Shown one piece after another: positions 3,647 to 29,900 of a DNA stretch of 47,302 nucleotides. This DNA is from an uncultured Candidatus Saccharibacteria bacterium (lineage in GTDB: Bacteria > Patescibacteriota > WWE3 > 2-01-FULL-39-13), in assembly GCA_964506905.1 (NCBI GenBank), contig CAZDNW010000044.1, forward strand, positions 1 through 47,302, read 5' to 3'. The notes below the pieces were generated by a model. The model was not told where the DNA came from, made no database searches, and was given only the letters and a program-made list of their open reading frames with translations. How positions within the stretch are numbered: the stretch's first letter is position 1; each line of letters opens with the position of its first letter. The position numbers were made by a program, and so were the translations under genes.

Positions 3647-4648
3647 TTACTTTTTTAAACCCTCTTTCTCTAATAAAGCAATGATTTCTCTTATTGATTT
3701 CTCACCAAGGTTTCTAACCCTTAACAATTCGTCTTCAGATCTTTCAGATAAATCTGCTAAAGTATTTATTCCTGCTTTTTTAAGTGCGTTTACAGTTCTT
3801 GTTGGAAGTCTAAGTTCTTCTAATGAAACTTCTTCTAACGCAATCCCGCTTTGTGTTGTTACACCCGCCGCATTTGCTTGTGCTTCCTTTTCATCTTCTA
3901 ATGCTGAAGCTTGAGCTAATAACGCATCTTGTTCATCGTTATATTCTTCTCCTGTTTCAACTTTATAGAAAAACTCTTTTAATATCTTTGCTGCATTTCT
4001 AACCGCTTCTTCTGGTTCAACAGAACCATCTGTTTCAACTGTTAATACCAATTTATCAAAATTATCATCTCTTCCAACTCTTGCTACATCAACATCATAA
4101 CTTACATTAACAATTGGTGTGTAATTAGCATCTAATAAAATCGTACCTCTTGGGACATCGGCATCTTCATCAACTTGTTCATATCCATAACCTGGTTTAA
4201 CAAGTAAAGTGGCTTTAAATGTATCTTTTGCTGTATTTAATGTGGTTATAACAAAATCCTTGTTTATTATTTCAACTCCTGCATCTTCTGAAATATCGCC
4301 TGCTGTAACATCCCCTGGTCCTTTTACATCAATCTTAAGCTCTACTGTATCGTCTAATTCAAATTCTGGTGACATTTTAACAATAACTTTCTTTAACTTT
4401 AATAATATTTGTAATACATCATCAGTTGCACCCTCTATTGTTGAAAATTCATGTGAAACCCCATCAATAGAAACAGATACAATAGCAGCTCCTCTTGTTG
4501 AGGAAAAAAGTGTTCTTCTTAAACCACTACCTATTGTATATCCAAACCCCTTAACTAATGGTGTTATTTCAAAAACCCCTTTTGTTGAGGTTTTTTCTAC
4601 TGTATTAAAATTTATTTTTTTAAGATTATACATATCTTTTTTTAACAC
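3647..4648 (-). CDS. rpoA: DNA-directed RNA polymerase subunit alpha
   Basis: The NTD has PLVKGFGYTIGSGLRRTLFSS. The CTD has LEELRLPTRTVNALKKAGINTLADL (helix-hairpin-helix). Sits in the alpha-operon position. Confidence 0.95.
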   Translation of the reverse strand: MLKKDMYNLKKINFNTVEKTSTKGVFEITPLVKGFGYTIGSGLRRTLFSSTRGAAIVSVSIDGVSHEFSTIEGATDDVLQILLKLKKVIVKMSPEFELDDTVELKIDVKGPGDVTAGDISEDAGVEIINKDFVITTLNTAKDTFKATLLVKPGYGYEQVDEDADVPRGTILLDANYTPIVNVSYDVDVARVGRDDNFDKLVLTVETDGSVEPEEAVRNAAKILKEFFYKVETGEEYNDEQDALLAQASALEDEKEAQANAAGVTTQSGIALEEVSLEELRLPTRTVNALKKAGINTLADLSERSEDELLRVRNLGEKSIREIIALLEKEGLKK

Positions 4649-4675: not shown

Positions 4676-5278
4676 TTAGCGTGAATAATATTCAACTATT
4701 AATTGCTCATTGATTTCTGAACTAATATCATCTCTTTCTGGCAATCTTGATATCTTTATTCCCTTTTTGTTTTTATCCCATTCTAACCAAGCGGGCATTT
4801 CAGCGTCATCCTTCGGTTTTGCTTCAACAAAGTCACATTCTACCATATCTCCCGTATTAACTTGGTATGATGGAATTGTAACCACATTCCCATTTACTTT
4901 AACTTTTCCTTGTCTAACTAATTTTCTAGCATGCATTCTTGACAATCCTAATCCACTTGAATATACAACATTGTCTAACCTTCTTTCTAACATCTGAAGT
5001 AGTAATTGCCCTGTAACACCTTTTTTTCTTGCTGCTTTATCATAATATCTTCTGAATTGTGTTTCTAAAACACCGTAGATTCTCTTTACTTTTTGTTTTT
5101 CTCTTAAGTGTCTACCATAATCAGATAGTCTTCTTCTTCGTAATGGACCATGTTGTCCAGGTGGATACGATCTTTTATTCATAGGACATTTATCGCTATA
5201 ACATTTTGCACCTTTTAAGAACAACTTTGTGCCTTCTCGTCTGCATAATTTACATTTTGGTCCTAAGTATCGTGACAT
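4676..5278 (-). CDS. rpsD: 30S ribosomal protein S4 (uS4), zinc-ribbon type
   Basis: MSRYLGPKCKLCRREGTKLFLKGAKCYSDKCP and YGVLETQFRRYY. I prefer the start at M16 of the track ORF (ATG 5276-5278), 1 nt after the rpsK stop. Confidence 0.93.
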   Translation of the reverse strand: MSRYLGPKCKLCRREGTKLFLKGAKCYSDKCPMNKRSYPPGQHGPLRRRRLSDYGRHLREKQKVKRIYGVLETQFRRYYDKAARKKGVTGQLLLQMLERRLDNVVYSSGLGLSRMHARKLVRQGKVKVNGNVVTIPSYQVNTGDMVECDFVEAKPKDDAEMPAWLEWDKNKKGIKISRLPERDDISSEINEQLIVEYYSR

Positions 5279-5279
5279 T

Positions 5280-5675
5280 TTATATTCTCCTTCGTTTCTT
5301 TGGTCTACACCCATTATGTGCAATAGGTGTAATATCTACTATTTTGTTTATAACTAACCCACCGTTTCTAATAGCCTTTACGGCTTGTGATTTTCCACTT
5401 CCTATACCTTTTATGTACGCTGTAACTTCCTTCATTCCTAAAGATACTGCTTCTTTTGCTGCATTTTCACCAACAACTGAAGCCGCATAAGGTGTTGATT
5501 TTCTTGATCCTTTAAATCCACTTGTTCCTCCTGATGCCCAACATACTGTATTGCCATCTAAATCTGTAACTGTAACAATTGTATTATTATATCCTGAAAA
5601 TACATATACATTTCCAATTTGTGGAATTTGCTTGGTTCTCTTTGTCTTTTTAACTGTTTTTTTAGCTTTTGCCAT
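5280..5675 (-). CDS. rpsK: 30S ribosomal protein S11 (uS11)
   Basis: GNVYVFSGYNNTIVTVTDLDGN, GFKGSRKSTPYAA, and C-terminal DITPIAHNGCRPKKRRR. Confidence 0.95.
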   Translation of the reverse strand: MAKAKKTVKKTKRTKQIPQIGNVYVFSGYNNTIVTVTDLDGNTVCWASGGTSGFKGSRKSTPYAASVVGENAAKEAVSLGMKEVTAYIKGIGSGKSQAVKAIRNGGLVINKIVDITPIAHNGCRPKKRRRI

Positions 5676-5686
5676 AATATAAAATA

Positions 5687-5708
5687 GTCACGACTAAACT
5701 ACCGTGAC
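5687..5708 (-). other. Intercistronic hairpin between rpsM and rpsK
   Basis: GTCACG (5687-5692) and CGTGAC (5703-5708) form a 6-bp stem with a 10-nt loop. On the minus strand it is followed by TATTTTATATT. Confidence 0.3.
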
Positions 5709-5722
5709 AATTCATCTAATAA

Positions 5723-6112
5723 CTAAGTTTTAGCTGCCGCTTTTGGATTTGCTCCACCAACAGCAACTCTTTTACCTCTTTTTGTTCTTGCATTTTTTTG
5801 TGTTTTCTGACCTCTTACCGGCAAGTTTCTAATATGCCTAATTCCCCTATAACATTGAATATCTTTTAATCTCTTAATATTTTGACTTACAACTCTTCTT
5901 AATTCACCTTCAACCATGTATTGCCCTTTTTCTATCACATTTCTAATAGAAGCTAACTGTTCATCTGTTAAGTCTTTTGCTCTTATATTTTCATCAACTT
6001 TAGCTCTTTCTAATATTTCTTTAGATGTAGACAGTCCAATTCCATAAATATATGTTAATGCTATTACGATTCTTTTATTATTTGGAATATCAACTCCTGC
6101 TATTCTTGGCAT
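5723..6112 (-). CDS. rpsM: 30S ribosomal protein S13 (uS13)
   Basis: [26 protein letters not shown] and [26 protein letters not shown]. Confidence 0.95.
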
Positions 6113-6114
6113 AG

Positions 6115-6231
6115 TTATCCTTGTCGTTGCTTGTGCTTTGGATTTGCACTACAAATTATGTAAACTTTCCCCTTTCGGCGAACTACTTTACAATGTCTAC
6201 ATCTTTTTTTTACGCTTGCTTTTACTTTCAT
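6115..6231 (-). CDS. rpmJ: 50S ribosomal protein L36 (bL36); absent from the supplied ORF track
   Basis: Manual translation gives [38 protein letters not shown] followed by TAA (6115-6117). The ATG at 6229-6231 overlaps the infA TGA (6228-6230) as ATGA. C-x2-C..C..H zinc motif present. Confidence 0.95.
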
Positions 6232-6452
6232 TTTTTTAATCTATATGTAATACGACCGTTTTCTAAATCGTATTTACTAAATTCTACTTTTACCCTATCA
6301 CCAGGCAATATATATATCTTAAACTTTCTCAATTTTCCAGCGATGTATCCGACAATTTCTTTGTCTTCATCATCTAACTTTATCTTAAATTTTCCATCAG
6401 GCAAAGCTTCTACAACAGTGCCCGTATATTCGATTAAATCTTTTTTAGCCAT
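6228..6452 (-). CDS. infA: Translation initiation factor IF-1
   Basis: [53 protein letters not shown] prefer the start at M11 of the track ORF, which is the canonical MAK.. N-terminus. Confidence 0.93.
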
Positions 6453-6526
6453 AAATATACTGTGCGTTTTGCCAAACGGCATTGCAGGAAAAGGTCTTAT
6501 AAGTTAAGAACCTAGTTTACTGCATT

Positions 6527-6554
6527 ATTGTAGCACAATTGTTAAAATTGTCGA
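6527..6554 (-). promoter_or_regulatory. Candidate sigma70-type promoter for infA-rpmJ-rpsM..: TCGACA-16 nt-(TGC)TACAAT
   Basis: The reverse complement of 6549-6554 is TCGACA. The reverse complement of 6527-6535 is TGCTACAAT, an extended -10. It sits in the 199-bp map-infA spacer, about 70 nt upstream of the infA ATG. Confidence 0.4.
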
Positions 6555-6681
6555 TATCTTAATCGTTATGTTGATTTGTCTATAAAATAGCAAATTTATA
6601 CTACAATCAAAATAAAAAACAATACATCACTTAATTGTGCGACTTTTAATATAATATAGTAATATTTCGCATAGTCAATAA

Positions 6682-7470
6682 CTATTTCGTTAAAATCACT
6701 GGACCATTTTCAGTTACAATTACTGTATGTTCAAACATACCTGTTTTGCTTTTATCTTTTGTAACAATAGACCATCCGTCGCTTTTGTCAACAAACCATT
6801 CTCCATCACCCATTGCATACATAACTTCAATAGCCAATCCCATGTTTTTCTTAATTTTCTTACCAGATCCTTCATATCCATGGCATGGAATATGTGGGTC
6901 CATATGAGCATCATAGCCTATTCCATGCCCCCCGTATCCATCCATCACTGAATACCCAGCACTTTCCACTATATCCTGCATTACAGACGATATATCACCT
7001 ATCCTATTTTTGGGGTATGCTCTTTCAATTGCAGAATTTAAAGCATATACTCCTGTTTTTAAAAACCTTTCCACCTCAGAATCACTGTTTGAAAATTGAT
7101 CCCTAATTGTATCTATAGAATCATATTTTTCTTTAACAGATATTGTCCAACAATGATCTATATAATGATCTTTATACTTTACCCCAAGGTCAATTGATAC
7201 AATATCATCAACTTTTAAGACAGTATCGTTGGGAATTCCATGCAACCATACTTCATTAACAGAAATACACGATGCATATTTATAGTCATCAACTTCTTTA
7301 AACCACGGTTCGACACCATATTTATCCATTTTATCTTGTATAAAATCGTTTATTTCTATGGTTTTTGTTCCAGCTACAGATATAAACAAGGCAGAATTCA
7401 TGATATCAACCGCATATTTAGCTGCTTCTTGCATTATATCTATTGATTCTTTGGATAATATATTATTCAT
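6682..7470 (-). CDS. map: Type I methionine aminopeptidase
   Basis: Metal ligand pattern DIVSIDLG..YIDHC, GGHGIG, LAIEVM, FEHTVIVTENG. Confidence 0.92.
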   Translation of the reverse strand: MNNILSKESIDIMQEAAKYAVDIMNSALFISVAGTKTIEINDFIQDKMDKYGVEPWFKEVDDYKYASCISVNEVWLHGIPNDTVLKVDDIVSIDLGVKYKDHYIDHCWTISVKEKYDSIDTIRDQFSNSDSEVERFLKTGVYALNSAIERAYPKNRIGDISSVMQDIVESAGYSVMDGYGGHGIGYDAHMDPHIPCHGYEGSGKKIKKNMGLAIEVMYAMGDGEWFVDKSDGWSIVTKDKSKTGMFEHTVIVTENGPVILTK

Positions 7471-18406: not shown

Positions 18407-19585
18407 CTACTTAAGAATTTTTGTAACAACTCCAGCACCTACTGTTTTGCTACCTTCTCTAATTGCAAATCTAAGACCCTCTTCGATTGCAATAGGTGTA
18501 ATCAATTCAACTGTGATATTAACATTGTCTCCTGGCATCACCATTTCTGTACCCTCTGGTAATGTTACTGTTCCTGTAACATCAGTAGTTCTCACATAAA
18601 ATTGTGGTCTATAACCATTAAAGAATGGTGTATGTCTACCACCTTCTTCTTTCTTTAGGACATAAACCTCAGCTTCGAATTTTGTATGAGGTGTTATGCT
18701 ACCTGGTGCTGCAATAACTTGACCTCTTTCAATTCCATCTCTTTCTATACCTCTTAGTAAAATACCGACATTATCACCAGCTAAACCTTCGTCTAATTGT
18801 TTGTTAAACATTTCGATTCCAGTGACAACTGTCTTTTTGGTTTCTTTTATACCAACAATTTCAACCTCTTCATTAAGGTTAATTTTTCCTCTTTCAATTC
18901 TACCTGTTGCAACTGTACCTCTACCTTGAATAGAAAACACATCTTCTACTGGCATTAAGAAAGGTTTGTCTAAATCTCTTTCTGGTGTAGGAATCCATTC
19001 GTCTACTGCTTTCATTAATTCTTTTATACTCTCAATAGCTTCTGCATCGCCTTCCAACGCTTTTAGTGCAGAACCAACAATAATTGGTGTTTCTCTTTCG
19101 TATCCGTACTTTTCTAATAAATCTCTTACTTCTTCTTCAACGAGTTCAATCAAGCTTTTATCTTCTACCATATCTGCTTTATTTAAGAAAACCACAAGCT
19201 TAGGAACACCTACTTGCCTTGCAAGCAATATATGTTCTCTTGTTTGAGGCATAGGACCATCGGTTGCTGCAACAACCAAAATTGCACCATCCATTTGAGC
19301 TGCACCTGTAATCATATTTTTGATATAGTCAGCGTGACCTGGTGCATCAATGTGTGCGTAGTGTCTTTTATCTGTTTCATACTCAACATGAGATACATTA
19401 ATTGTAATACCTCTTGCTTTTTCTTCTGGAGCATTATCGATTTGATCGAACGCTTTGAAGTTTGCCTTACCTTCATCAGCAAGGACTTTGGTAATTGCCG
19501 CAGTTAACGTTGTTTTACCATGGTCTACATGTCCAATGGTACCGATGTTGACATGCGGTTTTGATCTGTCAAATTTGTCAGCCAT
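18407..19585 (-). CDS. tuf: Elongation factor Tu
   Basis: [45 protein letters not shown], and NKADMV. I prefer the start at MADKFDRSK (ATG 19583-19585). An in-frame ATG also exists at 19598-19600. Confidence 0.96.
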
Positions 19586-19680
19586 TTTTAATTTAAACAT
19601 GAGAGAGGCAAAACAACTACTTTTTACCTTCTCAACAATAAATAACTAAATTTTATACTTTATTTTTAAAGTCAAATGTT

Positions 19681-19708
19681 ATTCTAACAGAAATTAAAGC
19701 AAATTCAA
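19681..19708 (-). promoter_or_regulatory. Candidate promoter for tuf: TTGAAT-16 nt-(TGT)TAGAAT
   Basis: The reverse complement of 19703-19708 is TTGAAT. The reverse complement of 19681-19689 is TGTTAGAAT, an extended -10. It lies in the 233-bp fusA-tuf spacer. Confidence 0.35.
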
Positions 19709-19833
19709 CACTAATCTTTAATTTCAACACAAGTTTAAAGAATACTACAAAACGAATCGTAACGCAACGCTATTATTTTGTTGTTATAACAGCATTTTTC
19801 TTAAATAATCTGCTACTTATAAACACCTAATCA

Positions 19834-21930
19834 TTATGCGGAAGTTTTTAATTTTTCTGCTATATTAGCAGGAACTACTTCATAATGACTTGGCTCAATT
19901 GACGGTGCCGCTCTTCCTTGCGTTAAACCTCTCAAAATTGTTACATAACCAAATAGTTCTGACAATGGAGCCAATGCTTTAACTACTTGTATGTTACCTC
20001 TTTGCTCCGTACCTTCAATCATGCCTCTTTTTGAAGATAAATCTCCTATAACATCACCAACAAATTCTTCTGGTGTAACAACTTCAACTTTCATAATAGG
20101 CTCTAATAGTACCAATCCTGCGCTTTTAGCTGCTTGCTGAAATGCTTCTCTCGCAGCTAACTGGAATGCAATTTCAGATGAATCAACTTCATGATATGAA
20201 CCGTCATACAATTCCACCTCAACATCAACAACAGGATAGCCCCATTCTACACCTTTTTCCATAGCCGCTTTAACACCTTTTTCTACTGCTGGAATATATT
20301 CTCTAGGAATCGTACCACCTACAATACTATTTACAAATTTAAACCCTTCACCTCTTTCTAACGGTTTAACTCTTAACCAAACATGTCCATATTGCCCCCT
20401 ACCACCAGATTGCTTAATATACTTACCTTCTGCTTCTGCTGTTCCAGTTATTGTTTCTCTATATGCAACTTTAGGTGCTCCAACATTAACATCTACGCCC
20501 ATATCTCTTCTTAGTGTCTCAACCTTTATTTCTAATTGAAACTCACCGACACCAGAAATAATAGTTTGCCCTGAATCATCATCTGTACTAACTTTAAAAG
20601 TAGGATCCTCATCAGTTAATTTTTTCAAAGCAATACCCATTTTCTCTTGATCAGATTTGGTTTTTGGCTCAATTGCCATCGAGATAACAGGTTCAGCAAA
20701 AGATATACTTTCTAATACAACATTCATACCTTCTTCTGTTATTGTGTCACCTGTAGCAGTATCCTTTAAGCCAACAACTGCTGCAATTTCCCCTGCATAG
20801 ACTTGCTTTATCTCTTCTCTGTCATTTGCATGCATTAAAACGATTCTACCAACTCTTTCTTTTTTACCCTTTGTAGTGTTATAAATATACGATCCAGACT
20901 GAAGTGTACCTGAATATACGCGAATGTATACTAACCTACCAACATACGGATCGGTCATAACTTTAAAAGCCAATGCAACAAATGGTTCATTTTTGTCTGG
21001 TTTGCAAATATATGTTTCACCGGTTTTTGTATCAACACCTTGAGCAGGCATTGTATCTAATGGTGATGGTAAATAATCCACAACCGCATCGAGTAAATGT
21101 TCTACAGCTACACCTCTATAATCCCCACCAAAAACTGGATAAAATTCTATTTCTAAACTTGTCGTACTTTTTCTAATAGCTTCTTTTATTTCATCAACTG
21201 ATAATTCTGCACCAGATAAATACTTTTCCATAAGTTCTTCATCTGCTTCTATTGCCTTTTCTATCATTTGAGTTCTGTATATTTGAGCTTCACTTTTCAT
21301 ATCCTCTGGAATTTCTTCTTCTGTTAATTCTTTATCTGTATAATCTTTGTATGTATATGCTTTCATAGTAACTAAATCCACCCAACCTCTAACTTCTTTT
21401 TCTTTTCCAATAGGTAACATGACCGGGTATGCATGCTCGGTAAGCCTTGATTTTACTGATTCTAATGTTTTATAAAAATCTCCTCCAATTTGATTTATTT
21501 TATTAAAAGCAAACATTCTAGGAACTTTATATTTATCTGCCTGTCGCCACACGGTTTCGGTTTGTGCCTCAACACCCATTTTTGAATCTAAAACAACGAT
21601 TGCTCCATCTAAAACCCTCAAGGACCTTTCTACTTCTGCTGTAAAATCAACATGCCCAGGCGTATCAATAATATTAATTCTATGATCTCTCCAAAAAGAA
21701 GTAACAGCAGCTGAAACAATTGTAACCCCCCTTTCTCTTTCTTGATCCATCCAATCTGTAGTTGTGTCACCTTCGTGAACAACACCTATTTTATGTCGCA
21801 ATCCTGTTGCGTATAAAATCGCCTCTGTTGCAGTTGTTTTACCTGCATCAATGTGTGCGATAATTCCAATATTTCTAATTTTTTCAATTGGGTATTGTTG
21901 TGCCTTATCGGCTACATGAACTTCTGCCAT
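19834..21930 (-). CDS. fusA: Elongation factor G
   Basis: 698 aa; NIGIIAHIDAGKTTATE, DTPGHVDFTAEVERSLRVLDG, NKINQIGG, and the domain IV/V motifs ..GGRGQYGHVWL... Confidence 0.96.
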   Translation of the reverse strand: MAEVHVADKAQQYPIEKIRNIGIIAHIDAGKTTATEAILYATGLRHKIGVVHEGDTTTDWMDQERERGVTIVSAAVTSFWRDHRINIIDTPGHVDFTAEVERSLRVLDGAIVVLDSKMGVEAQTETVWRQADKYKVPRMFAFNKINQIGGDFYKTLESVKSRLTEHAYPVMLPIGKEKEVRGWVDLVTMKAYTYKDYTDKELTEEEIPEDMKSEAQIYRTQMIEKAIEADEELMEKYLSGAELSVDEIKEAIRKSTTSLEIEFYPVFGGDYRGVAVEHLLDAVVDYLPSPLDTMPAQGVDTKTGETYICKPDKNEPFVALAFKVMTDPYVGRLVYIRVYSGTLQSGSYIYNTTKGKKERVGRIVLMHANDREEIKQVYAGEIAAVVGLKDTATGDTITEEGMNVVLESISFAEPVISMAIEPKTKSDQEKMGIALKKLTDEDPTFKVSTDDDSGQTIISGVGEFQLEIKVETLRRDMGVDVNVGAPKVAYRETITGTAEAEGKYIKQSGGRGQYGHVWLRVKPLERGEGFKFVNSIVGGTIPREYIPAVEKGVKAAMEKGVEWGYPVVDVEVELYDGSYHEVDSSEIAFQLAAREAFQQAAKSAGLVLLEPIMKVEVVTPEEFVGDVIGDLSSKRGMIEGTEQRGNIQVVKALAPLSELFGYVTILRGLTQGRAAPSIEPSHYEVVPANIAEKLKTSA

Positions 21931-21992
21931 AAATATATTTATTACGCATAGTTACAGTATCTATAACCTACTATAATATGCGTGAAAACTAC

Positions 21993-22009
21993 TTCGAATA
22001 TCATTCGAA
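21993..22009. promoter_or_regulatory. Perfect palindrome TTCGAAT-ATC-ATTCGAA in the fusA / GT2 divergent spacer
   Basis: Read directly: 7-bp arms at 21993-21999 and 22003-22009 with a 3-bp centre. Lies 63-79 nt upstream of the fusA ATG. Confidence 0.3.
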
Positions 22010-22141
22010 AACTATTCACAAGTTTCTATATATATAATAGAAAAACTAACGGCATAAATTTTAGTTACTAAAACAATAACTAAAACTTAGCGACTGTAAT
22101 TATTACACGAATAAACTCAAAGGGCAATAACTTTTACAATG

Positions 22142-22150
22142 TGATATACT
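22142..22150 (+). promoter_or_regulatory. Extended -10 element TGATATACT upstream of the GT2 gene
   Basis: 22142-22150 reads TGATATACT, 53 nt before the ATG at 22204. No convincing -35 element. Confidence 0.3.
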
Positions 22151-22203
22151 CTCAAATTAGTTAGTTATCCTGCTTAACATTTGTATTATAATCACAATTA
22201 ACA

Positions 22204-23763
22204 ATGATTGATCCGAAAAAACCATCCGACAGATTTTTTATGTTTTTACCTGGCTTTTTGTCGTGGGCAATGATTTTAATGCCTCTTTGGCTGGGTTATT
22301 TATATCCAAAAGCGGCTACATTTATATTAACATTTATTGCTATCTACTGGTTATACATGGCTGTTACCCATGCATATGGGCTATTAAAAGGATATAAAAC
22401 ATTTCAAGAGGCGATTAAAACTAAATGGATTAAGAAAGTTGAGAAATTAGATTTCGAAAAACTTCCCAATAAAAAAACTTTGCCTGATAGTTATGAGGGC
22501 TTAAAACATATTCTTTTAATTCCAACTTATAAAGAAACAATAGAAATATTAGAACCTACATTTAAGGGAATTATGAACCAAACTGTTGGTAGAGATAAAA
22601 TAATTGTAATTGTTGGAACTGAAGAAGCCGGTGAAGAAATTGTAACAAAAGCATTAGATGAAATTGAAGAAAAATATGGAGATAAATTACCTAGAATAAT
22701 GCAATTTATACACCCCAAAGGGTTGCCACACGAAATAGTTGGTGTTGCGTCACCAAATAGAACCTGGGCTGCTAAACATGGTATAGAGCAATTAAAAAAA
22801 GAAGGAATAAAAGTTAAGAATTGCATTTTTACAACATTTGATTCTGATGCAACCTTACATCCTGAATTTCTTGCTTGTGTAACTTATAATTACTTAACCG
22901 ATGAGAAAAGATATAACAGATTTTACGAAACAGCTGTTCATTTATTTTCCAATAATATATGGGAAGTTCCACTACTTGCTAGAATAGAAGCCGTTAACTT
23001 AACGCTTGGGCTTCTCTCTAGTTGGACTACTCAATCAAGGTTATCTGAAACTTTTGCATGTTATTCGGTTGCATTAGATACACTTATCGCTGCTGATTAT
23101 TGGGATGTAAGATTTATTGATGATACTTTATTTTACTGGAGAGCATTTGAAGTTAGAAAAGGCGATTTTTCTGCAAAATATTTTCACATACCAATTTATA
23201 GCGATGCTACAGGCGGAGCTAATTATGTACTAGCACATAAGAATTTGTTTAAGCAATTAGTAAGGTGGGGCTGGGGAAGTGTATCTACGGCAATTGCATT
23301 TAAGATGTTCTTTACAAAAAAATTAGAAAATCTAACCACTGACCAAAAATTAGTTTGGTTATACTTAAAGATAGAAAGACATCTATTAGTAAGAACTTCA
23401 GTATTTTTAATTACATTCGGCTTTACAATTTTAACTTTTGTTAATACTAATTTTAGATTACAAGCTGCAACATATGGTTTACCTAAAATTATTAGTATAT
23501 TTTTAACTGCTGGTGTTTTTATGTTTATTCCTCTAACTTATGTTAAACAAAAGCTATACCCTGTTCCTAAAACATTTCCAAAATGGAGAAAATACACTTC
23601 ATTGTTAGAAGCACCATTTGTAATGATAAATATGTTAACTTATGGCTTAATACCCTGGCTTTATGCTGAAACTATGATGATGTTTGGATACTTACCAAAA
23701 GTCACGCACTATACTGAAAAAACTAGAGAACCTAAAAAACATAAGGTTGAAGTACCTGCTTAG
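22204..23763 (+). CDS. Membrane-embedded family-2 glycosyltransferase, processive synthase-like (cellulose/chitin/PNAG/hyaluronan-synthase architecture)
   Basis: 519 aa. Two N-terminal TM helices, a cytoplasmic GT-A core (LLIPTYKE.., FDSDATLHPEF = DxD, FIDDTLFYW), then KQLVRWGWGS = QxxRW, then about 4 C-terminal TM helices. Confidence 0.6.
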   Translation: MIDPKKPSDRFFMFLPGFLSWAMILMPLWLGYLYPKAATFILTFIAIYWLYMAVTHAYGLLKGYKTFQEAIKTKWIKKVEKLDFEKLPNKKTLPDSYEGLKHILLIPTYKETIEILEPTFKGIMNQTVGRDKIIVIVGTEEAGEEIVTKALDEIEEKYGDKLPRIMQFIHPKGLPHEIVGVASPNRTWAAKHGIEQLKKEGIKVKNCIFTTFDSDATLHPEFLACVTYNYLTDEKRYNRFYETAVHLFSNNIWEVPLLARIEAVNLTLGLLSSWTTQSRLSETFACYSVALDTLIAADYWDVRFIDDTLFYWRAFEVRKGDFSAKYFHIPIYSDATGGANYVLAHKNLFKQLVRWGWGSVSTAIAFKMFFTKKLENLTTDQKLVWLYLKIERHLLVRTSVFLITFGFTILTFVNTNFRLQAATYGLPKIISIFLTAGVFMFIPLTYVKQKLYPVPKTFPKWRKYTSLLEAPFVMINMLTYGLIPWLYAETMMMFGYLPKVTHYTEKTREPKKHKVEVPA

Positions 23764-23778
23764 ATTATTTGCGATATT

Positions 23779-24825
23779 TTAAAATAATTCTGGTTGATCT
23801 TTATCCGTTGATGAATCAAGATCATTTGGATTTTCATTACTGAGTTCCCCGTAATAATCTTTCTGATAAAAACTTCTTTTTAGCCATTTATGATAATCAG
23901 TGAAATCATTACCGGTTTGATATTCTTTTTCTATATGTTTTACGGCTTGATTCATACTTGCACTAGCATCATCAATTTGGCTTAAAACTAATGATTCTAT
24001 TAATTGTGGAACTACTGGGCTTCCATGTTCTAATGATCCTTGATGGCTTAAAATCATATGATAAACCTTATTTTTTAAATCTTCAGGAAAATCCGGAATT
24101 TGACTTATTAGTTTATCAACAAATAATAAACCCTGCCCAATATGAGCAACTAATCTTCCTGAATTGGTTCTGATTATAGTGGCACCAACAATATCAAGTT
24201 CATTTAATTTACCAACATCATGGAAAAATATACCAGTAAAAAGTAAATCTCTGTCTAAATTAGGATATAATTTTAAGTAAGGTTTGGATAACTCATTCAT
24301 TTCCCAAACATGCTCAATTAACCCGCCGACATAACCATGATGTACATACTCGGCAGCTGGGAAATTTACAAATTTATCACGGTATTCATCATTATTCCAA
24401 AATAGTTCTAATAATTTCTTAAGATGAGGGTTTTTTGTTTTTGAAATTTCGCTAGAAAGATCGCTCATCATTTGATCTCTATCTCTTGTTGTTACCACCA
24501 AAAATTCCTCTGGTGCAATATCATCAACTACTTCTAATTTTTCAACAATAATTTGCGGTTTTCCTGCATATTCTTGTACCTTGCCTGTAATTGCTACAAT
24601 ATCGCCATTTTTAGCATTTGTGTCGATGTTTGGAATTGCTTCTGTCCACGCCTTTGCTCTTATTCGTCCAGTTTTATCTCCAAGCTCGATATTAAAATAT
24701 GGCTTTTGCTGTTTACTAAGTTTTTTCTCTAATTCTAATAAGGCAAATGGTTCATCTATTAACTTTTGGTCTAACTGTAAATCAGTAATATTGTTTTTCT
24801 TTTGCATAGTTACATTATAATACAT
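23779..24825 (-). CDS. yhaM: YhaM-like 3'-5' exoribonuclease (OB-fold + HD domain)
   Basis: The OB region has GDKTGRIRAKAW..GDIVAITGKVQEYAGKPQIIVEKL. The HD region has HHGYVGGLIEHVWEM..LFTGIFFHDVGK..ILSHQGSLEHGSP..IDDASA. It is collinear with B. subtilis YhaM as I recall it. The start may be M7 (24807). Confidence 0.75.
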   Translation of the reverse strand: MYYNVTMQKKNNITDLQLDQKLIDEPFALLELEKKLSKQQKPYFNIELGDKTGRIRAKAWTEAIPNIDTNAKNGDIVAITGKVQEYAGKPQIIVEKLEVVDDIAPEEFLVVTTRDRDQMMSDLSSEISKTKNPHLKKLLELFWNNDEYRDKFVNFPAAEYVHHGYVGGLIEHVWEMNELSKPYLKLYPNLDRDLLFTGIFFHDVGKLNELDIVGATIIRTNSGRLVAHIGQGLLFVDKLISQIPDFPEDLKNKVYHMILSHQGSLEHGSPVVPQLIESLVLSQIDDASASMNQAVKHIEKEYQTGNDFTDYHKWLKRSFYQKDYYGELSNENPNDLDSSTDKDQPELF

Positions 24826-24847
24826 TATTTAAGGTAACTATAGACTT

Positions 24848-25564
24848 TTAATCTAATAGGTTTTTATCTTTCAAAGAGATGAAATCAGTATCAGATAATA
24901 TCAAATGATCTATGAGAGGAATTCCAATCGTATAAGATACATCAAGTAATCTTCTTGTTAAACGAAGATCGTCTGATGACGGTTCTATATCACCTGAAGG
25001 GTGGTTGTGTGCAATAACTACATAAGTTGCGAGTCTATCTATAGCCACTTTAAAAACCTCTCTTGGATGTGCAATTGTTTCGTTTATAGTTCCTATTGAG
25101 ACAACATCGATTGCTATTATCTTTTTTCTTGAATCTAATGAAGTTACAATTAAATGTTCTTTATTTTTTCTTAAGTAGTAAGGTCGTAACAACTTGAAAA
25201 GCGTTTTCGCGGAATATAAATCACCATTTGAAGTATTTTGCTTTATCGAATCAAGGCGGTTTACTAATTCAAATGTTGCTACTAACTGGCAAGCTTTTGT
25301 AGTACCAATACCTTTTATTTGCGTTAAATCGGTAATATTAGCGTCTTTTAATTTATTAATTTGTGGGAATTTTGAAAGTATTTCATACGCAACATCGACT
25401 ACTGAAGTGTTATTTGAACCCTTGGATATGATGATTTCTAACAATTCTATTAAAGATAAAGAACTTGGGCCTTTAGATATTAACCGTTCTCTTGGCCTTT
25501 CTGCTAATGGTATATCGCGAATTGAATTTTGATTATTAAATTCGTTATATTGTTTCTTCTGCAT
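24848..25564 (-). CDS. radC: RadC-family JAB/MPN domain protein
   Basis: N-terminal HhH region (LIELLEIIISKGS.., IKGIGTTKACQL). C-terminal JAMM motif VVIAHNHPSGDIEPSSDDLRLTRRL. Confidence 0.88.
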   Translation of the reverse strand: MQKKQYNEFNNQNSIRDIPLAERPRERLISKGPSSLSLIELLEIIISKGSNNTSVVDVAYEILSKFPQINKLKDANITDLTQIKGIGTTKACQLVATFELVNRLDSIKQNTSNGDLYSAKTLFKLLRPYYLRKNKEHLIVTSLDSRKKIIAIDVVSIGTINETIAHPREVFKVAIDRLATYVVIAHNHPSGDIEPSSDDLRLTRRLLDVSYTIGIPLIDHLILSDTDFISLKDKNLLD

Positions 25565-25614
25565 AAGTATATTTTATGTAAATGAATTAACAGGTTTTCT
25601 ACAAAAGAATTAAG

Positions 25615-25628
25615 AATTGTGAACAATT
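25615..25628. promoter_or_regulatory. Palindrome AATTGT-GA-ACAATT upstream of radC
   Basis: Read directly: 6-bp arms with a 2-bp centre, 51-64 nt upstream of the radC ATG. It lies between the tandem array and radC. Confidence 0.25.
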
Positions 25629-25647
25629 TAAAAGTAACAAGGAGTGA

Positions 25648-26005
25648 GGCTTTCTTGGTTAAAGTCAATGTTGTGAAAGTAATCTAGTAGAAACAATCTA
25701 CCAACGAAAGTGTGCGAAAGCCTTGCGACCACCAGGGCGAAGGCTTTCTTGGTTAAAGCCAATGTTGTGAAAATAATCTAGTAGAAACAATCTACCAACG
25801 AAAGTGTGCGAAAGCCTTACGACCACCAGGGCGAAGGCTTTCTTGGTTAAAGTCAATGTTGTGAAAATAATCTAGTAGAAACAATCTACCAACGGAAATG
25901 TGCGAAAGCCTTGCGATGCGAAGCAACGAAGGCTTTCTTGGTTAAAGTCAATGTTGTGAAAATAATCTAGTAGAAAACAATCTACCAACGAAAGTGTGCG
26001 AAAGC
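25648..26005 (-). repeat. Tandem array, 3.8 copies of a 94/95-bp unit that reiterates the 3' end of rpsG plus downstream hairpins
   Basis: Units start at 25648, 25742, 25836 and 25931. The last unit merges into genuine rpsG coding sequence at 26005. Copies A and B differ at 3 of 94 positions. The only strongly variable segment is a 15-16-nt hairpin loop. Confidence 0.95.
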
Positions 26006-26449
26006 TTTATTCGCCTCCGCCATCTTATGTGTATTTATCTTCTTTGTGATAGCTGCTCCTTCGTTATTATACGCCATCTTGATTTCTTCTGTTAATTTTT
26101 CTACCATTGGTTTGCCCTTTCGTGACTTAGCAGCTTCAATTATCCATCTTAATGCTAATGTTTCTGATCTGTCATGCCTTACAGGAATTGGGATTTGATA
26201 ATTTGCACCACCGATTCTTCTGCTTCTTACTTCAACCTCAGGCATAACATTTTTTACCGCGGTTTCAAAATATATTCTTGCCTCTTTTATGTCCGGATCT
26301 AAATTTTCCATCATTCCATAAACAATGTCTCTTGCGATGCTTTTTTTACCATCAACCATTACCATATTTATTAATTTAGTAACAACTCTTGATTTATATT
26401 TTGAATCTGGTTCTTTTAATCTTTTATGTACTTTTCTTGATCTTGGCAT
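25982..26449 (-). CDS. rpsG: 30S ribosomal protein S7 (uS7)
   Basis: MPRSRKVHKR, KLINMVMVDGKKSIA, EVRSRRIGGANYQIPIPV, and C-terminal KMAEANKAFAHFRW. Confidence 0.96.
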   Translation of the reverse strand: MPRSRKVHKRLKEPDSKYKSRVVTKLINMVMVDGKKSIARDIVYGMMENLDPDIKEARIYFETAVKNVMPEVEVRSRRIGGANYQIPIPVRHDRSETLALRWIIEAAKSRKGKPMVEKLTEEIKMAYNNEGAAITKKINTHKMAEANKAFAHFRW

Positions 26450-26473
26450 AATAATTTATAATAACTAACTAAA

Positions 26474-26911
26474 TTAAGCTTCTTCAGCTACTCCTGCATT
26501 ATTTGAACTCTTTTTAGTACCATATCTTGATCTGCTATTTTTTCTACCTTCTACACCTTGCAAATCAAATGTTCCTCTAACAATTGTATACCTTACACCA
26601 GGTAAATCTTTAACTCTACCACCTCTTACCAAAACAACAGAGTGTTCTTGTAGATTATGACCTTCTCCTGGTATGTATGCGGTTACTTCTCTACCGTTTG
26701 ACAATCTAACTCTAGCAACTTTTCTTAAAGCTGAGTTTGGCTTTCTTGGTGTAGTTGTTCTAACACTTGTACATACGCCTCTCTTAAAAGGTGAATATAC
26801 TTTTACATACTCTCTTTTTTTAGCGTTGTACATTACAGACAATGCTCTTGTTTTTGGTTTTCTTGTTTTTCTTTTTCTTCCTTTTCTTATTAATTGATTT
26901 ATTGTTGGCAT
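26474..26911 (-). CDS. rpsL: 30S ribosomal protein S12 (uS12) with short C-terminal extension
   Basis: [69 protein letters not shown]. Confidence 0.96.
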
Positions 26912-26913
26912 TT

Positions 26914-29900
26914 TTATACCTCCTCTTTTTTAAGTCGAGCGGCTTCACCTACTGGAATTCGTCGACCGATTATCACATTTTCTTTTAAACCTATAAGTTT
27001 GTCAATACTTCCTGCTATGGATCTTTCTGTAAGTACCCTGCTTGTTTCTTCGAAAGACGCGGCATCAAGCCAACTTTCTGAGTTTATGGATACCTTAGAA
27101 ATTCCTAATAATAACTTCTCATAAGTTGCTTCTTGCCCACCTTTTTTAACTGCTTTTTCATTTTCTTCCCTTAATTTATAAATTGTGACTATATCACCTG
27201 GCAATAATTTAGTATCACCAGTGTCTATTATTTTAACACGATTAAACATTTGTCTAATAATAGCTTCTACATGTTTATCATCGATTTCAACACCTTGAGA
27301 AGCATAGGTTTTTTGAACTTCATTTAAGATGTACTCTTTAGTTCCTTCTTCACCAACGGTTTCATACATCTCTTGAAGATTTCTTGCACCTTGTGTAATT
27401 TGATCACCAGGCGCTACCAAATCACCATCGTTTACTGCTAAATCTGCAGTTTTATCTAATTCATATACCTCTTCTAAATCCTCCTTTTTGGTTGGGACAA
27501 TTTTAACAATTAATTTATCTTCTTCTTCGTTTATTACAACCTTACCTGCTATATGTGTCATTATTGATTGATTCTTTGGTTTTCTAGCTTCAAAAAGTTC
27601 GTCAATTCTTGGCAAACCTTGTGTAATGTCTGATTGTGCAATACCACCACTATGGAATGTTCTCATTGTTAACTGAGTACCTGGTTCACCAATTGATTGT
27701 GCAGCCATAATTCCCACTGCAGCACCAATTGCAACATCTTTTTTGTAAGATAAATCTAATCCATAACATTTCGTACATACACCATATTCACTTTCACAAG
27801 TTAAAACAGATCTTATTTTAACCTCTTCCACATCAGACTCGCCTATCTTTTTAGCAATATCTTCTGTAATCAATTCGTTTCGCTTTACTATCACATTGCC
27901 TTTTTTATCTTTAATTGTTTCTGCAGCATATCTACCTACAACCCTATCATTCCATTCAACTAATGTTGTATTGTCATCTCTTTTAACGGTTCTGTAATTC
28001 TTTGTCCCACAATCTTCTTCTCTAACCAATATATCTTGAGCAACATTAACAAGCCTTCTTGTTAAATAACCGGCATCTGCTGTACCAAGTCCCTTATCCA
28101 TATAATTCTTTCTGACACCTCTTGCTGATAAGAAATAATCAAAACTTGAAAGTCCGTTTGCATAATTTCCAATAACAGGAAGTTCGATTACTTTACCTTT
28201 TGGATCCGCAATTAGACCTTTCAGTGCTGCAATCTGTCTTATTTGAACAGCCGACGCTTTACCTGCTTTAGCTCTAATAATTATATTAACTGGATTCTCA
28301 TGTTCCAAATTAGAAAGTATAGTTTCGTCAAAATGGTTTTCAACTTGTTTCCATACTTTAAATGACAACTTAATCATTTCATTTCTTGTAATAAGCCCCA
28401 TGTAATAATTTTGCTCAATCTTACTAACTTCCTCTTTTGCTTTCTTTAACACTTCATCCATATCAGCTGGTTTTTTAGTATCAAATATTGATAAAGAAAC
28501 ACCTGACTTTGTGGAATATATAAATCCATATTTCTTTAAATCATCAATGAAATCGATTGTTCTTTCTACTCCAACCTTTTCTAAAGCTTCTTTTACTAAT
28601 TTTTTAACACCAGATTTACCACCTATTTCCTCATTAACAAAACCGAGCTCATCTGGAACAAAACTATTAAATATAATTCTTCCTGCAGATGTTTCTATTA
28701 TTTCATCACCTTTTAGGTATCTTATTTTTTGCCTAATTTCAATCACATCATTTCCTAGTGCTTGAAATACTTCTGATTCATCAGCAAATACGCTTTTATG
28801 CATTTCAAAGTTGGGATTAATACTTGTTAAATAGTAAATACCCAAAAGCATTTCTTTTGATGGTACTGTTATAACTTCACCATTTGCTGGTTTTAGTAAG
28901 TTGTTTGTGGAAAGCATAAGTTCAATACTTTCCATTACCGCTTCTTCGGATAATGGCAAATGTACAGCCATCTGGTCTCCATCAAAATCAGCATTAAATC
29001 CTGCACATACAACTGGATGCAACTGTATTGCTTTGTCATGAACTAATTTCGGATAAAACGCTTGAATACTAAGTTTATGTAAAGTTGGAGCACGATTAAG
29101 AAGTACAGGTCTTGTTTTAACAAGTTCTTCTAGTATATCGTAAATCGCTCCAGATCTTTCTTCTAATACCCTCTTTGCTGTCTTCATATTAGGTGCTAAA
29201 CCTCTAGCCATTATTTCTCTTAGTAAAAATGGCCTAAACAATTCAAATGCAATATCAACTGGTAATCCACATTCATGCATTCTTAAAGAAGGACCAGAAA
29301 CAATAACTGAACGACCTGAATAATCAACTCTTTTACCTAATAAATTAGCTCTAAAATAACCTTGCTTACCTTTAATTGTATCTGCTATAGATCTGTAGGT
29401 TTTTCTTTCTCTCGTTCTTGATTTTCTTACCTTTGAAGAATCTATTAGCGCATCAACTGATTCTTGTAACATTCTTTTTTCATTTCTGATAATTATGTCT
29501 GGCGCACCTAAATCTAGTAATCTTTTTAAACGGTTATTTCTGTTTATGATTCTTCTATACAAATCGTTTAAATCTGAAGCCGCAAATCTTCCGCCCTCTA
29601 ATTGAACCATTGGTCTAAGATCAGGTGGAATTACAGGTAAAACTTCTATAATCATATTCTTTGGATCAACCTCACCGTTAATAAAACTTTTGATAACCCT
29701 TAATCTTTTCTTTAACTTATCAACTTGAGAAGATTTTGCGGTTTCTATTTGTTCTTCAACCTCTTTTTCCAAAGCTTTAACATCTAAATCAGCTAATATT
29801 TTTTCTATGGCTTCTGCACCTATTGAGACTTCACAAAATTCATCTAAGTATTCTTCTAATGAAACATATTCTCTGTCTGTCATTATGGTATGTAATTCAA

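Follow-up and report, generated by a model that had tools for sequence, protein, structure and literature searches.

The closest known kind of repeat to the one described here is the minisatellite of mycobacterial operons, the mycobacterial interspersed repetitive unit (MIRU). MIRUs are head-to-tail units of 40-100 bp that lie between the genes of polycistronic operons in the orientation of those genes, and their copy number varies by strain (PMC3184786; PMC3635867). The units hold small open reading frames (ORFs) that overlap the ends of neighbouring genes, as well as GC-rich internal inverted repeats (PMC3184786; PMC3635867). The subject of this report is a tandem array between rpsG, the gene for ribosomal protein S7, and a radC-like gene in an environmental contig of 47,302 nt (CAZDNW010000044.1), referred to in its whole length as the window. 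The S7 protein assigns the window to candidate division WWE3 of the candidate phyla radiation. rpsG and the radC-like gene are on the same strand with nothing but the array between them, and the head-to-tail units fall in the minisatellite size range (40-100 bp): 94 nt in the window, 82 nt in the related contig L085, and 95 nt in contigs L182 and L184 of a sister lineage, P0002. Copy number varies here too, with one versus two units in P0002 strains of identical S7. The array also differs from MIRUs. MIRUs are dispersed at about 40 loci, whereas in the 47-kb window the rpsG unit was found at rpsG only. The rpsG units repeat the last eight codons and stop of the essential gene upstream, and these spare ends, as we read them, can become the working end and show purifying selection at the codon level. 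A literature search returned nothing relevant on rpsG tandem repeats.

Substitute gene ends are also created by duplication of attachment (att) sites. At icd, e14 or phage 21 leaves a second gene end downstream with mostly silent differences, and either copy completes the gene (PMC6379469). The rpsG array resembles such duplications, at icd and at the ends of tRNA and tmRNA genes, in offering a substitute gene end with mostly silent differences. However, the rpsG copies form a regular tandem at intervals of 82-96 nt, have native DNA between them, and are accompanied by no element, integrase or cargo. Silent-cassette systems such as pilE/pilS of Neisseria keep untranslated partial copies that are recombined into the expressed gene and diversify the protein. 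The rpsG array would be like them in holding untranslated partial gene copies near the expressed gene that are moved in by recombination or conversion. It differs in that all tails encode the same peptide, except for one His-to-Tyr change in contig L083, so that exchange would be silent for the protein. Finally, GC-rich hairpins grouped just past a stop codon in AT-rich intergenic DNA recall repetitive extragenic palindromes (REPs) and bacterial interspersed mosaic elements. The rpsG hairpin, by contrast, is found nowhere else in the window, has a 3' arm derived from coding sequence, and belongs to direct repeats rather than alternating palindromes.

Spare rpsG ends in the window and in related lineages

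Tandem Repeats Finder (TRF) reports a single array at 25647-26005 (period 94, 3.8 copies, 93% matches, score 616), by far the top-scoring repeat of the window. The interval 25647-26008 holds the final eight codons and stop of rpsG in four copies, one real tail and three spares, and all four encode KAFAHFRW-stop. Each unit of about 94-96 nt consists of T (27 nt, the full in-frame S7 tail with its stop), X (a spacer of about 44 nt) and J, a GC-rich junction of 23-24 nt that opens with a partial copy of the Lys-Ala-Phe-Ala codons. The 24-mer GCTTTCGCACACTTTCGTTGGTAG has four minus-strand sites, at 25982, 25886 (two mismatches), 25792 and 25698, with a shuffle expectation of 0, and a 28-mer from the non-coding part of the unit likewise occurs four times. 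Running outward from rpsG, the tail-to-tail periods are 96, 94 and 94 nt; unit 1 has an additional T in its first hairpin loop and a junction longer by 1 nt. An earlier note on this DNA had placed the unit starts at 25648, 25742, 25836 and 25931, with periods of 94, 94 and 95, which is correct for the phase it chose. It had also recognized the S7 C-terminus in every unit, as the four tail matches and their translation bear out, and it had called the three differences between tails synonymous, with which the codon comparison agrees. The rpsG-radC gap measures 417 nt, the length given there.

When all fetched loci were scanned for the motif, two groups beyond the window proved to have a repeated S7 tail. 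The first is lineage P0002, in which S7 is 88% identical to that of the window. Its three contigs come from three samples, have identical S7 proteins, and are 97-98% identical in rpsG; their rpsG-radC gaps are 131 versus 226 nt. L183 has one tail, with a unit of type a, L184 has two tails, with units a-b, and L182 has two tails, with units b'-c. The 95-nt unit of L182 and L184 can be aligned with the window unit, and the internal junction of L182, AAAGCTTTCGCTGCTTCGCATCGT, is identical to window junction J1 at 21 of 24 nt. The common junction indicates that the window and P0002 arrays descend from one duplication. The second group is another WWE3 clade, in which L085 has three tails with a period of 82 (L179, from a different sample, shares this array, and L180 has a variant of it), and L083 and L181 have two tails with a period of 88.

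The tails of these arrays differ almost exclusively in ways that leave the protein unchanged. At least 27 substitutions separate tails within the three array groups, and 26 of them retain peptide and stop, the exception being the His-to-Tyr change in L083. Random single-base changes would retain both in 16-24% of cases (P<1e-15). The changes include the Arg codons AGG, CGA and CGT and exchanges among the stops TAG, TAA and TGA. The X spacers of the compared units (types a, b and c) are only 57-73% identical, and this divergence indicates that the units are old and that the non-synonymous positions of the spares have been fixed all along. Junctions are better conserved than spacers, and show no coding pattern.

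Tails have also changed places. The working tail and first spacer of L182 are of the b type, which is the second unit in L184. Between L182 and L183, 4 of 27 positions differ in the tail and only 4 of 441 in the rpsG body (Fisher p=5e-4). The terminal junction of L183 opens like the internal junction of L184 (AAA, not AAG), as expected if a J-J deletion had produced it. Units one and two of L180 equal those of L085. Four synonymous sites set its third tail apart, each in a state found in copy 1 or 2, which suggests a gene-conversion mosaic. The population of the window has two forms of the working Lys codon, AAA in the window and AAG in contig L001 from run SRR8542060; the spare tails have AAG, a pattern that points to exchange there as well. 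The earlier note had the intuition that tails are replaced. They are, but apparently by recombination within the array and not by integration.

A proposed minisatellite with exposed gene ends

We give an even chance to the view that the locus is an old intercistronic rpsG-radC minisatellite of the WWE3 lineage, which changes size by unequal recombination in its tails or junctions. Direct observation covers the repeat and its relatives, how arrays differ in the number and order of their units, the swapped tail and the synonymous-only changes; from these we infer the recombination mechanism and the selection argument. A single ancestral duplication would have founded the array, as the junction common to two lineages suggests, and unequal recombination or slippage, in T or in J, would have lengthened and shortened it since. 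A contraction within T would join the rpsG body to a downstream tail, and a spare would become the working end. Each spare would thus be exposed periodically as the true end of an essential protein. Arrays with a damaged spare would give dead deletion progeny, which would place the spares under purifying selection without their being translated in place. Such selection by exposure would require a deletion rate higher than the mutation rate per tail, and a large population. In the window, the three near-identical units would reflect a recent local expansion. A minisatellite with exposed spares would explain why tail changes are synonymous, why a tail was swapped, why units stand in shuffled order and why the recent window units are nearly identical, and no separate cellular function is required.

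Several points weigh against this account. The conservation of the junctions is left unexplained, unless the hairpin or recombination constrains them. The tails of L085 differ from one another at 4-6 of 27 positions, a divergence that should make homologous exchange rare. Selection by exposure is itself population-genetic reasoning, and the copy number of the window (one real tail and three spares) is read from the assembly. The history of the array leans on an S7 tree built from a single gene of 155 aa. In the P0002 lineage, moreover, the spares may be translated directly, to judge from the reading frames discussed below. Among the rival explanations, a cis-acting hairpin array carries the most weight, followed by in-place translation, integration scars and artefact.

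A more specific proposal, which we hold tentatively, is that an essential and universally conserved gene keeps a tandem stack of stand-by 3' ends, that recombination in the stack keeps switching the working end of S7, and that this turnover by itself places untranslated DNA under purifying selection at the codon level. The two WWE3 clades with arrays would be at least two instances, and the palindromic Lys-Ala-Phe codons (AAAGCTTT) at the C-terminus of S7 may have seeded them. If true, this would be a previously undescribed form of selection on silent gene-end cassettes, and a natural case of DNA kept translatable only through occasional recombination into an essential gene. The conserved C-terminal codons of S7, palindromic in DNA, appear to be a recurrent rearrangement hot spot in genomes of the candidate phyla radiation. 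For annotation, the array represents a repeat class that pipelines mishandle, with contig breaks and spurious small ORFs; it is also a strain-resolving length marker for WWE3 populations.

Possible translation of the spare tails

A synonymous-only pattern is what translation would give. The spares might be translated in place, as the C-termini of mini-ORFs reached by termination-reinitiation, with selection acting on that translation; its purpose might be to hold ribosomes on the rpsG-radC spacer, couple radC expression and prevent polarity. Throughout the P0002 lineage every internal J+T is an intact 17-codon ORF from ATG (ATG-KAFAASHR-KAFAHFRW-stop and ATG-KAFAALRR-KAFAHFRW-stop in the internal units of L182 and L184). 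The window, in units 2-4, has a TTG 1 nt past each stop (TAGATTG) that opens a frame of 30 codons, which runs to the stop of the next tail because the period is 3n+1. Nevertheless, we regard selection through such translation as quite unlikely. The window has AAG at the position of the relatives' ATG, and the TTG frame that follows the real rpsG stop, where the period is 96, meets TGA after 11 codons. In L085 and L083 the frames before the spare tails close after 4-12 codons, and the sole candidate TTG start is out of frame for copy 3 of L085. The linker codons of the mini-ORFs vary nonsynonymously (S>L, H>R) and the tail does not. There is no reason for such a peptide to need an S7 tail. The small ORFs of the arrays are not on record as called genes.

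Recoding models were considered and rejected. In-frame read-through of the real stop reaches a second TAG after four codons. A +1 shift from the real stop reaches TGA, and the +1 frame is open only in window units 2-4 and closed in L085 and L083, which rejects this model in general.

A separate mini-ORF, ATG-KAFAASPHLLYKLKVYV-stop, lies between array and radC in the P0002 lineage (L182 917-973) and is present even in single-copy L183. In the window, AAG replaces its ATG and about 14 nt are deleted (25565-25653), so that this terminal mini-ORF is absent.

Support from independent assemblies

Logan contigs from SRR8542060 represent the window strain, from which they differ by one mismatch each, over 1480 nt and 4453 nt (blastn). 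They end precisely at the last unique 31-mer on both sides of the array, which indicates that the repeat is present in those independent reads. One of them, L002, starts at a point which implies that SRR8542060 lacks the C private to unit 4 or is polymorphic for it.

These data bear on a possible origin of the array as an artefact of assembly, or as a very recent, neutral slippage without history. Units 3 and 4 are almost identical, short-read assemblers can miscount repeats of 94 nt, and the closest species-level relative, L003, is without an array. We nevertheless consider this explanation very improbable: the independent assembly also breaks at both array borders, the units are told apart by private single-nucleotide polymorphisms (SNPs) and two strongly divergent junctions, and homologous arrays were assembled in three other samples and analogous arrays in four further contigs. 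The two divergent junction sequences, together with a private SNP per unit, argue against a simple collapse or expansion. The earlier note had kept a neutral recent slip for the case that all relatives lacked the array; related arrays were found.

Hairpins and RNA structure

Each window unit carries two hairpins. The first, hairpin A, overlaps the stop with the 7-bp stem that the earlier note described; in unit 1 it is formed by X1 and the final codons of T1. It is confined to the window lineage and missing from the L182 and L184 units. The second stem, GAAAGCCTT/AAGGCTTTC, which the same note had given as 9 bp, lengthens to 11 bp (-17.7 kcal/mol, z -3.8 to -4.4). It has three occurrences in the window, every one within the array. 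The coordinates of these features are collected in Table 1.

Table 1. Positions of the array components, predicted hairpins and adjoining genes in the window
Feature	Coordinates	Strand	Description
rpsG	25982..26449	(-)	Ribosomal protein S7, 155 aa; Pfam PF00177, E 9e-52
Tail T1	25982..26008	(-)	Working end; AAA GCT TTC GCA CAC TTT CGT TGG TAG
Spacer X1	25937..25981	(-)	45 nt, AT-rich, native intergenic; homologous to L164 and L182 intergenic DNA
Junction J1	25913..25936	(-)	AAAGCCTTCGTTGCTTCGCATCGC; partial Lys-Ala-Phe copy and GC-rich loop
Tail T2	25886..25912	(-)	Spare; AAG GCT TTC GCA CAT TTC CGT TGG TAG
Spacer X2	25842..25885	(-)	44 nt
Junction J2	25819..25841	(-)	AAAGCCTTCGCCCTGGTGGTCGT; variant loop
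Tail T3	25792..25818	(-)	Spare
Spacer X3	25748..25791	(-)	44 nt; private G in ATTGGCT
Junction J3	25725..25747	(-)	AAAGCCTTCGCCCTGGTGGTCGC
Tail T4	25698..25724	(-)	Spare
Spacer X4	25654..25697	(-)	44 nt; private C in GATTACTTT
Terminal junction remnant and radC leader	25565..25653	(-)	AAAGCCTCACTCCTTGTTAC...; homologous to the terminal mini-ORF region of L183
radC-like gene	24848..25564	(-)	Next downstream of the array; Pfam PF04002 and PF20582
Hairpin A	25873..25891	(-)	TGGTAGA-TTGTT-TCTACTA over the T2 stop; -7.5 kcal/mol, z -2.9
Hairpin A equivalents	25968-25987, 25779-25797, 25685-25703		
Hairpin B1	25904..25937	(-)	GAAAGCCTTCG / CG-AAGGCTTTC; J1 pairs with the start of T2; -17.7 kcal/mol
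Hairpin B equivalents	25810-25842, 25716-25748		

The Lys-Ala-Phe codons (AAAGCTTT) form a perfect palindrome, which the earlier note overlooked. The start of the junction, AAAGCYTTCG, is a partial direct copy of the same codons. The self-complementarity of AAAGCTTT makes J repeat the beginning of the following tail in direct as well as inverted orientation, and a strong junction hairpin results. The junction hairpin is therefore largely a consequence of the palindrome. The junction is also complementary to the rpsG codons A-E-A-N-K-A-F upstream, and in single-copy strain L183 a long stem is predicted between the junction and these codons, with the stop codon enclosed. Junction hairpins whose 3' arm enters the AAGG of the tail have energies of -17.7 kcal/mol in the window, -14.3 in L184 and -13.9 in L085; the presence of the hairpin in L085 as well means that the feature recurs across array families.

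Structure of this kind raises the possibility of a cis-acting RNA or DNA device, such as a set of partial terminators, stabilisers of the 3' end of rpsG mRNA, or an attenuator or insulator before radC. The earlier note had raised an insulator or attenuator too, and also a structured RNA that might be an S7-binding decoy. Stacks of an A-tract, a GC stem and the UUU of a Phe codon would make up the device, copy number would tune its effect, and the tails would be kept at the nucleotide level. Strong junction hairpins occur in both array families, the whole array folds more stably than shuffles (z -4.4), the L183 junction pairs with rpsG codons around the stop, and the junctions are conserved more than the spacers. 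However, such a motif does not predict tail variation that is strictly limited to third codon positions and stop-to-stop changes. A terminator consensus scan of 24800-26600 gave 0 sites (the junction stem ends in TTT and then C), and an Rfam 15 scan of 19000-27500 gave no covariance-model match up to E=1, ribosomal-protein leaders included. Covariation of the junction stem in the window/P0002 family amounts to one compensatory pair (C-G vs U-A) and falls short of significance. Hairpin A lacks conservation, close relatives manage without the array, and the stem is mostly an automatic outcome of the palindrome. We consider a device of this kind unlikely to be the reason for the array. In addition to the turnover of the minisatellite, the hairpins may also affect stability or termination at the 3' end of rpsG mRNA. 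Should they act on the rpsG transcript as terminators or stabilisers, the number of copies would tune how strongly the radC block in the str operon is expressed. Promoter-like sites in the consensus scan were at chance level only.

Native origin of the unit and the gene neighbourhood

The gene order on the minus strand is rpoB, rpoC, rpsL, rpsG, array, radC-like gene and a gene with an OB-fold and an HD domain, with fusA further on. Between the OB/HD gene and fusA lies a 519-aa ORF on the opposite strand that matches no Pfam family. The order rpsG-radC-OB/HD(-519 aa)-fusA is common to L003, L163, L164, L006, L007, L087, L173 and L182, and this sharing across the clade indicates that the radC block is ancestral and not a recent island. 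The earlier note had placed the array at the edge of a non-canonical gene insert, which corresponds to this ancestral block. The unit, too, is native. L164, whose S7 is 72% identical and which has no array, carries after its rpsG stop DNA that starts TAGATTGGCAGACTC...TTCACAACTCGAG and is homologous to the start of the window unit; comparison of this single-copy region and of the L182 and L184 units with the window unit argues that the unit is built from native intergenic DNA.

These findings bear on the first explanation offered in the earlier note, that the tails are stacked att-like scars of integration and excision. Elements or fragments targeting the 3' end of rpsG would each have brought a tail and displaced older ones downstream, for which e14 at icd is a precedent of an element supplying a substitute gene end (PMC6379469). 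Within one array the tails differ as much as orthologous tails do from lineage to lineage; copy 2 of L085 is identical at 27 of 27 positions to the working tail of L004, and copy 1 resembles L005. The gene content downstream of rpsG also varies in WWE3: other genes take up 0 kb or about 5 kb, and in L083 the genes there are convergent. Yet the flanking ORFs of the window, L083, L085 and L005 contain no integrase or transposase by Pfam, and no cargo lies in or beside the arrays. No copy of the S7 tail was found at the far end of the radC block, and the units of 82-96 nt share one common junction and consist of native intergenic sequence. No copy of the unit occurs elsewhere in the 47-kb window, and exact matches number 0 in metagenome and viral contig collections. 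A degenerate S7-tail pattern retrieved from viral contigs one ordinary rpsG-fusA contig, and no phage-borne isolated tail. With the radC block ancestral and present in relatives without arrays, we regard integration as an improbable source of the tails.

Other classes of repeat were rejected as well. A REP or miniature inverted-repeat transposable element reading fails because no further copies were found in the window or among the fetched loci. The conserved part of the unit is 77 nt and the variable part 17-18 nt. The variation lies in the loop of the junction hairpin, which the earlier note had correctly singled out as the sole strongly variable part. A single nt separates two of the three variable parts. 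These proportions and this near-identity speak against a CRISPR array, and a Pfam scan of rpsL, rpsG, radC, the OB/HD gene, the 519-aa ORF and fusA gave no cas match. A replication origin with iterons was rejected on the GC skew, which is monotonic over the window.

The radC-like and OB/HD block sits between rpsG and fusA of the str operon (window 22204-25564). In L003 and L163, the closest relatives of the window, the block also holds an opposite-strand ORF of 515-527 aa, 83% identical between the window and L003. About 3-5.5 kb of other genes lie between rpsG and radC in L004, L084, L085 (~4683-7397) and L005 (6481-11177); they include a purF-like amidotransferase and a PsbP_2-like protein in L085 and unknown ORFs in L005. 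In L083 the genes downstream of rpsG are convergent. This varied gene content marks the rpsG 3' end as a synteny breakpoint in the second WWE3 clade.

Distribution and decay of duplicated tails

In a neighbour-joining tree of S7 the window falls outside the pair formed by L003 and the P0002 lineage. On this one-gene tree, the array would predate the split between L003 and P0002 and would have been lost in L003, where just 53 nt separate rpsG from radC. L163 and L164, the P0009, P0018 and P0010 groups, and 80 species-level genomes scanned at the nucleotide level with the last 24 nt of rpsG (<=5 mismatches) yielded no array. When 1295 ORF tails were tested across the fetched loci, the leading genuine matches were the rpsG genes of the window, L085, L083 and L127. 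That all of these are rpsG indicates that tail repetition is specific to this gene.

In other lineages of the candidate phyla radiation, decayed or partial S7 tails are seen 3' of rpsG, in L127 (CCGCTTTGCTTGGTAA, about 86 nt after the stop) and L007 (AAAGCATTTGTCGGATTCTATTAA, about 30-55 nt after the stop). In L008, CATTTCAGATAGAGATGG, just before the start of fusA, is perhaps another decayed tail. Duplication of the rpsG tail may be more widespread, usually followed by decay.

Two further motifs accompany the arrays. A Shine-Dalgarno-like AAGGAG lies antisense to the array exit on the plus strand (window 25641-25700) and is followed by a 10-codon TTG ORF (TTG GTT AAA GTC AAT GTT GTG AAA GTA ATC TAG); a comparable GAAGG-TTG layout is antisense in each unit. 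This arrangement is probably incidental. In L083 and L085, a motif of TTCTCCCTTG plus hairpin is found upstream of each spare tail, and its opposite strand reads as the Shine-Dalgarno-like AAGGGAGAA. L083 has a third TTCTCCCTTGG motif after the second tail (3673-3760, with L181 alike), followed by a GC-rich hairpin, GTCCGC...GCGGAC, and no tail beyond it. Finally, five Logan contigs of the P0009 group (L166-L172), from different runs, all stop 136 nt past the rpsG stop, at ...GATGATAAGCGAAGC, which hints at a further repeat, or at a junction that varies by strain, downstream of rpsG in this lineage.

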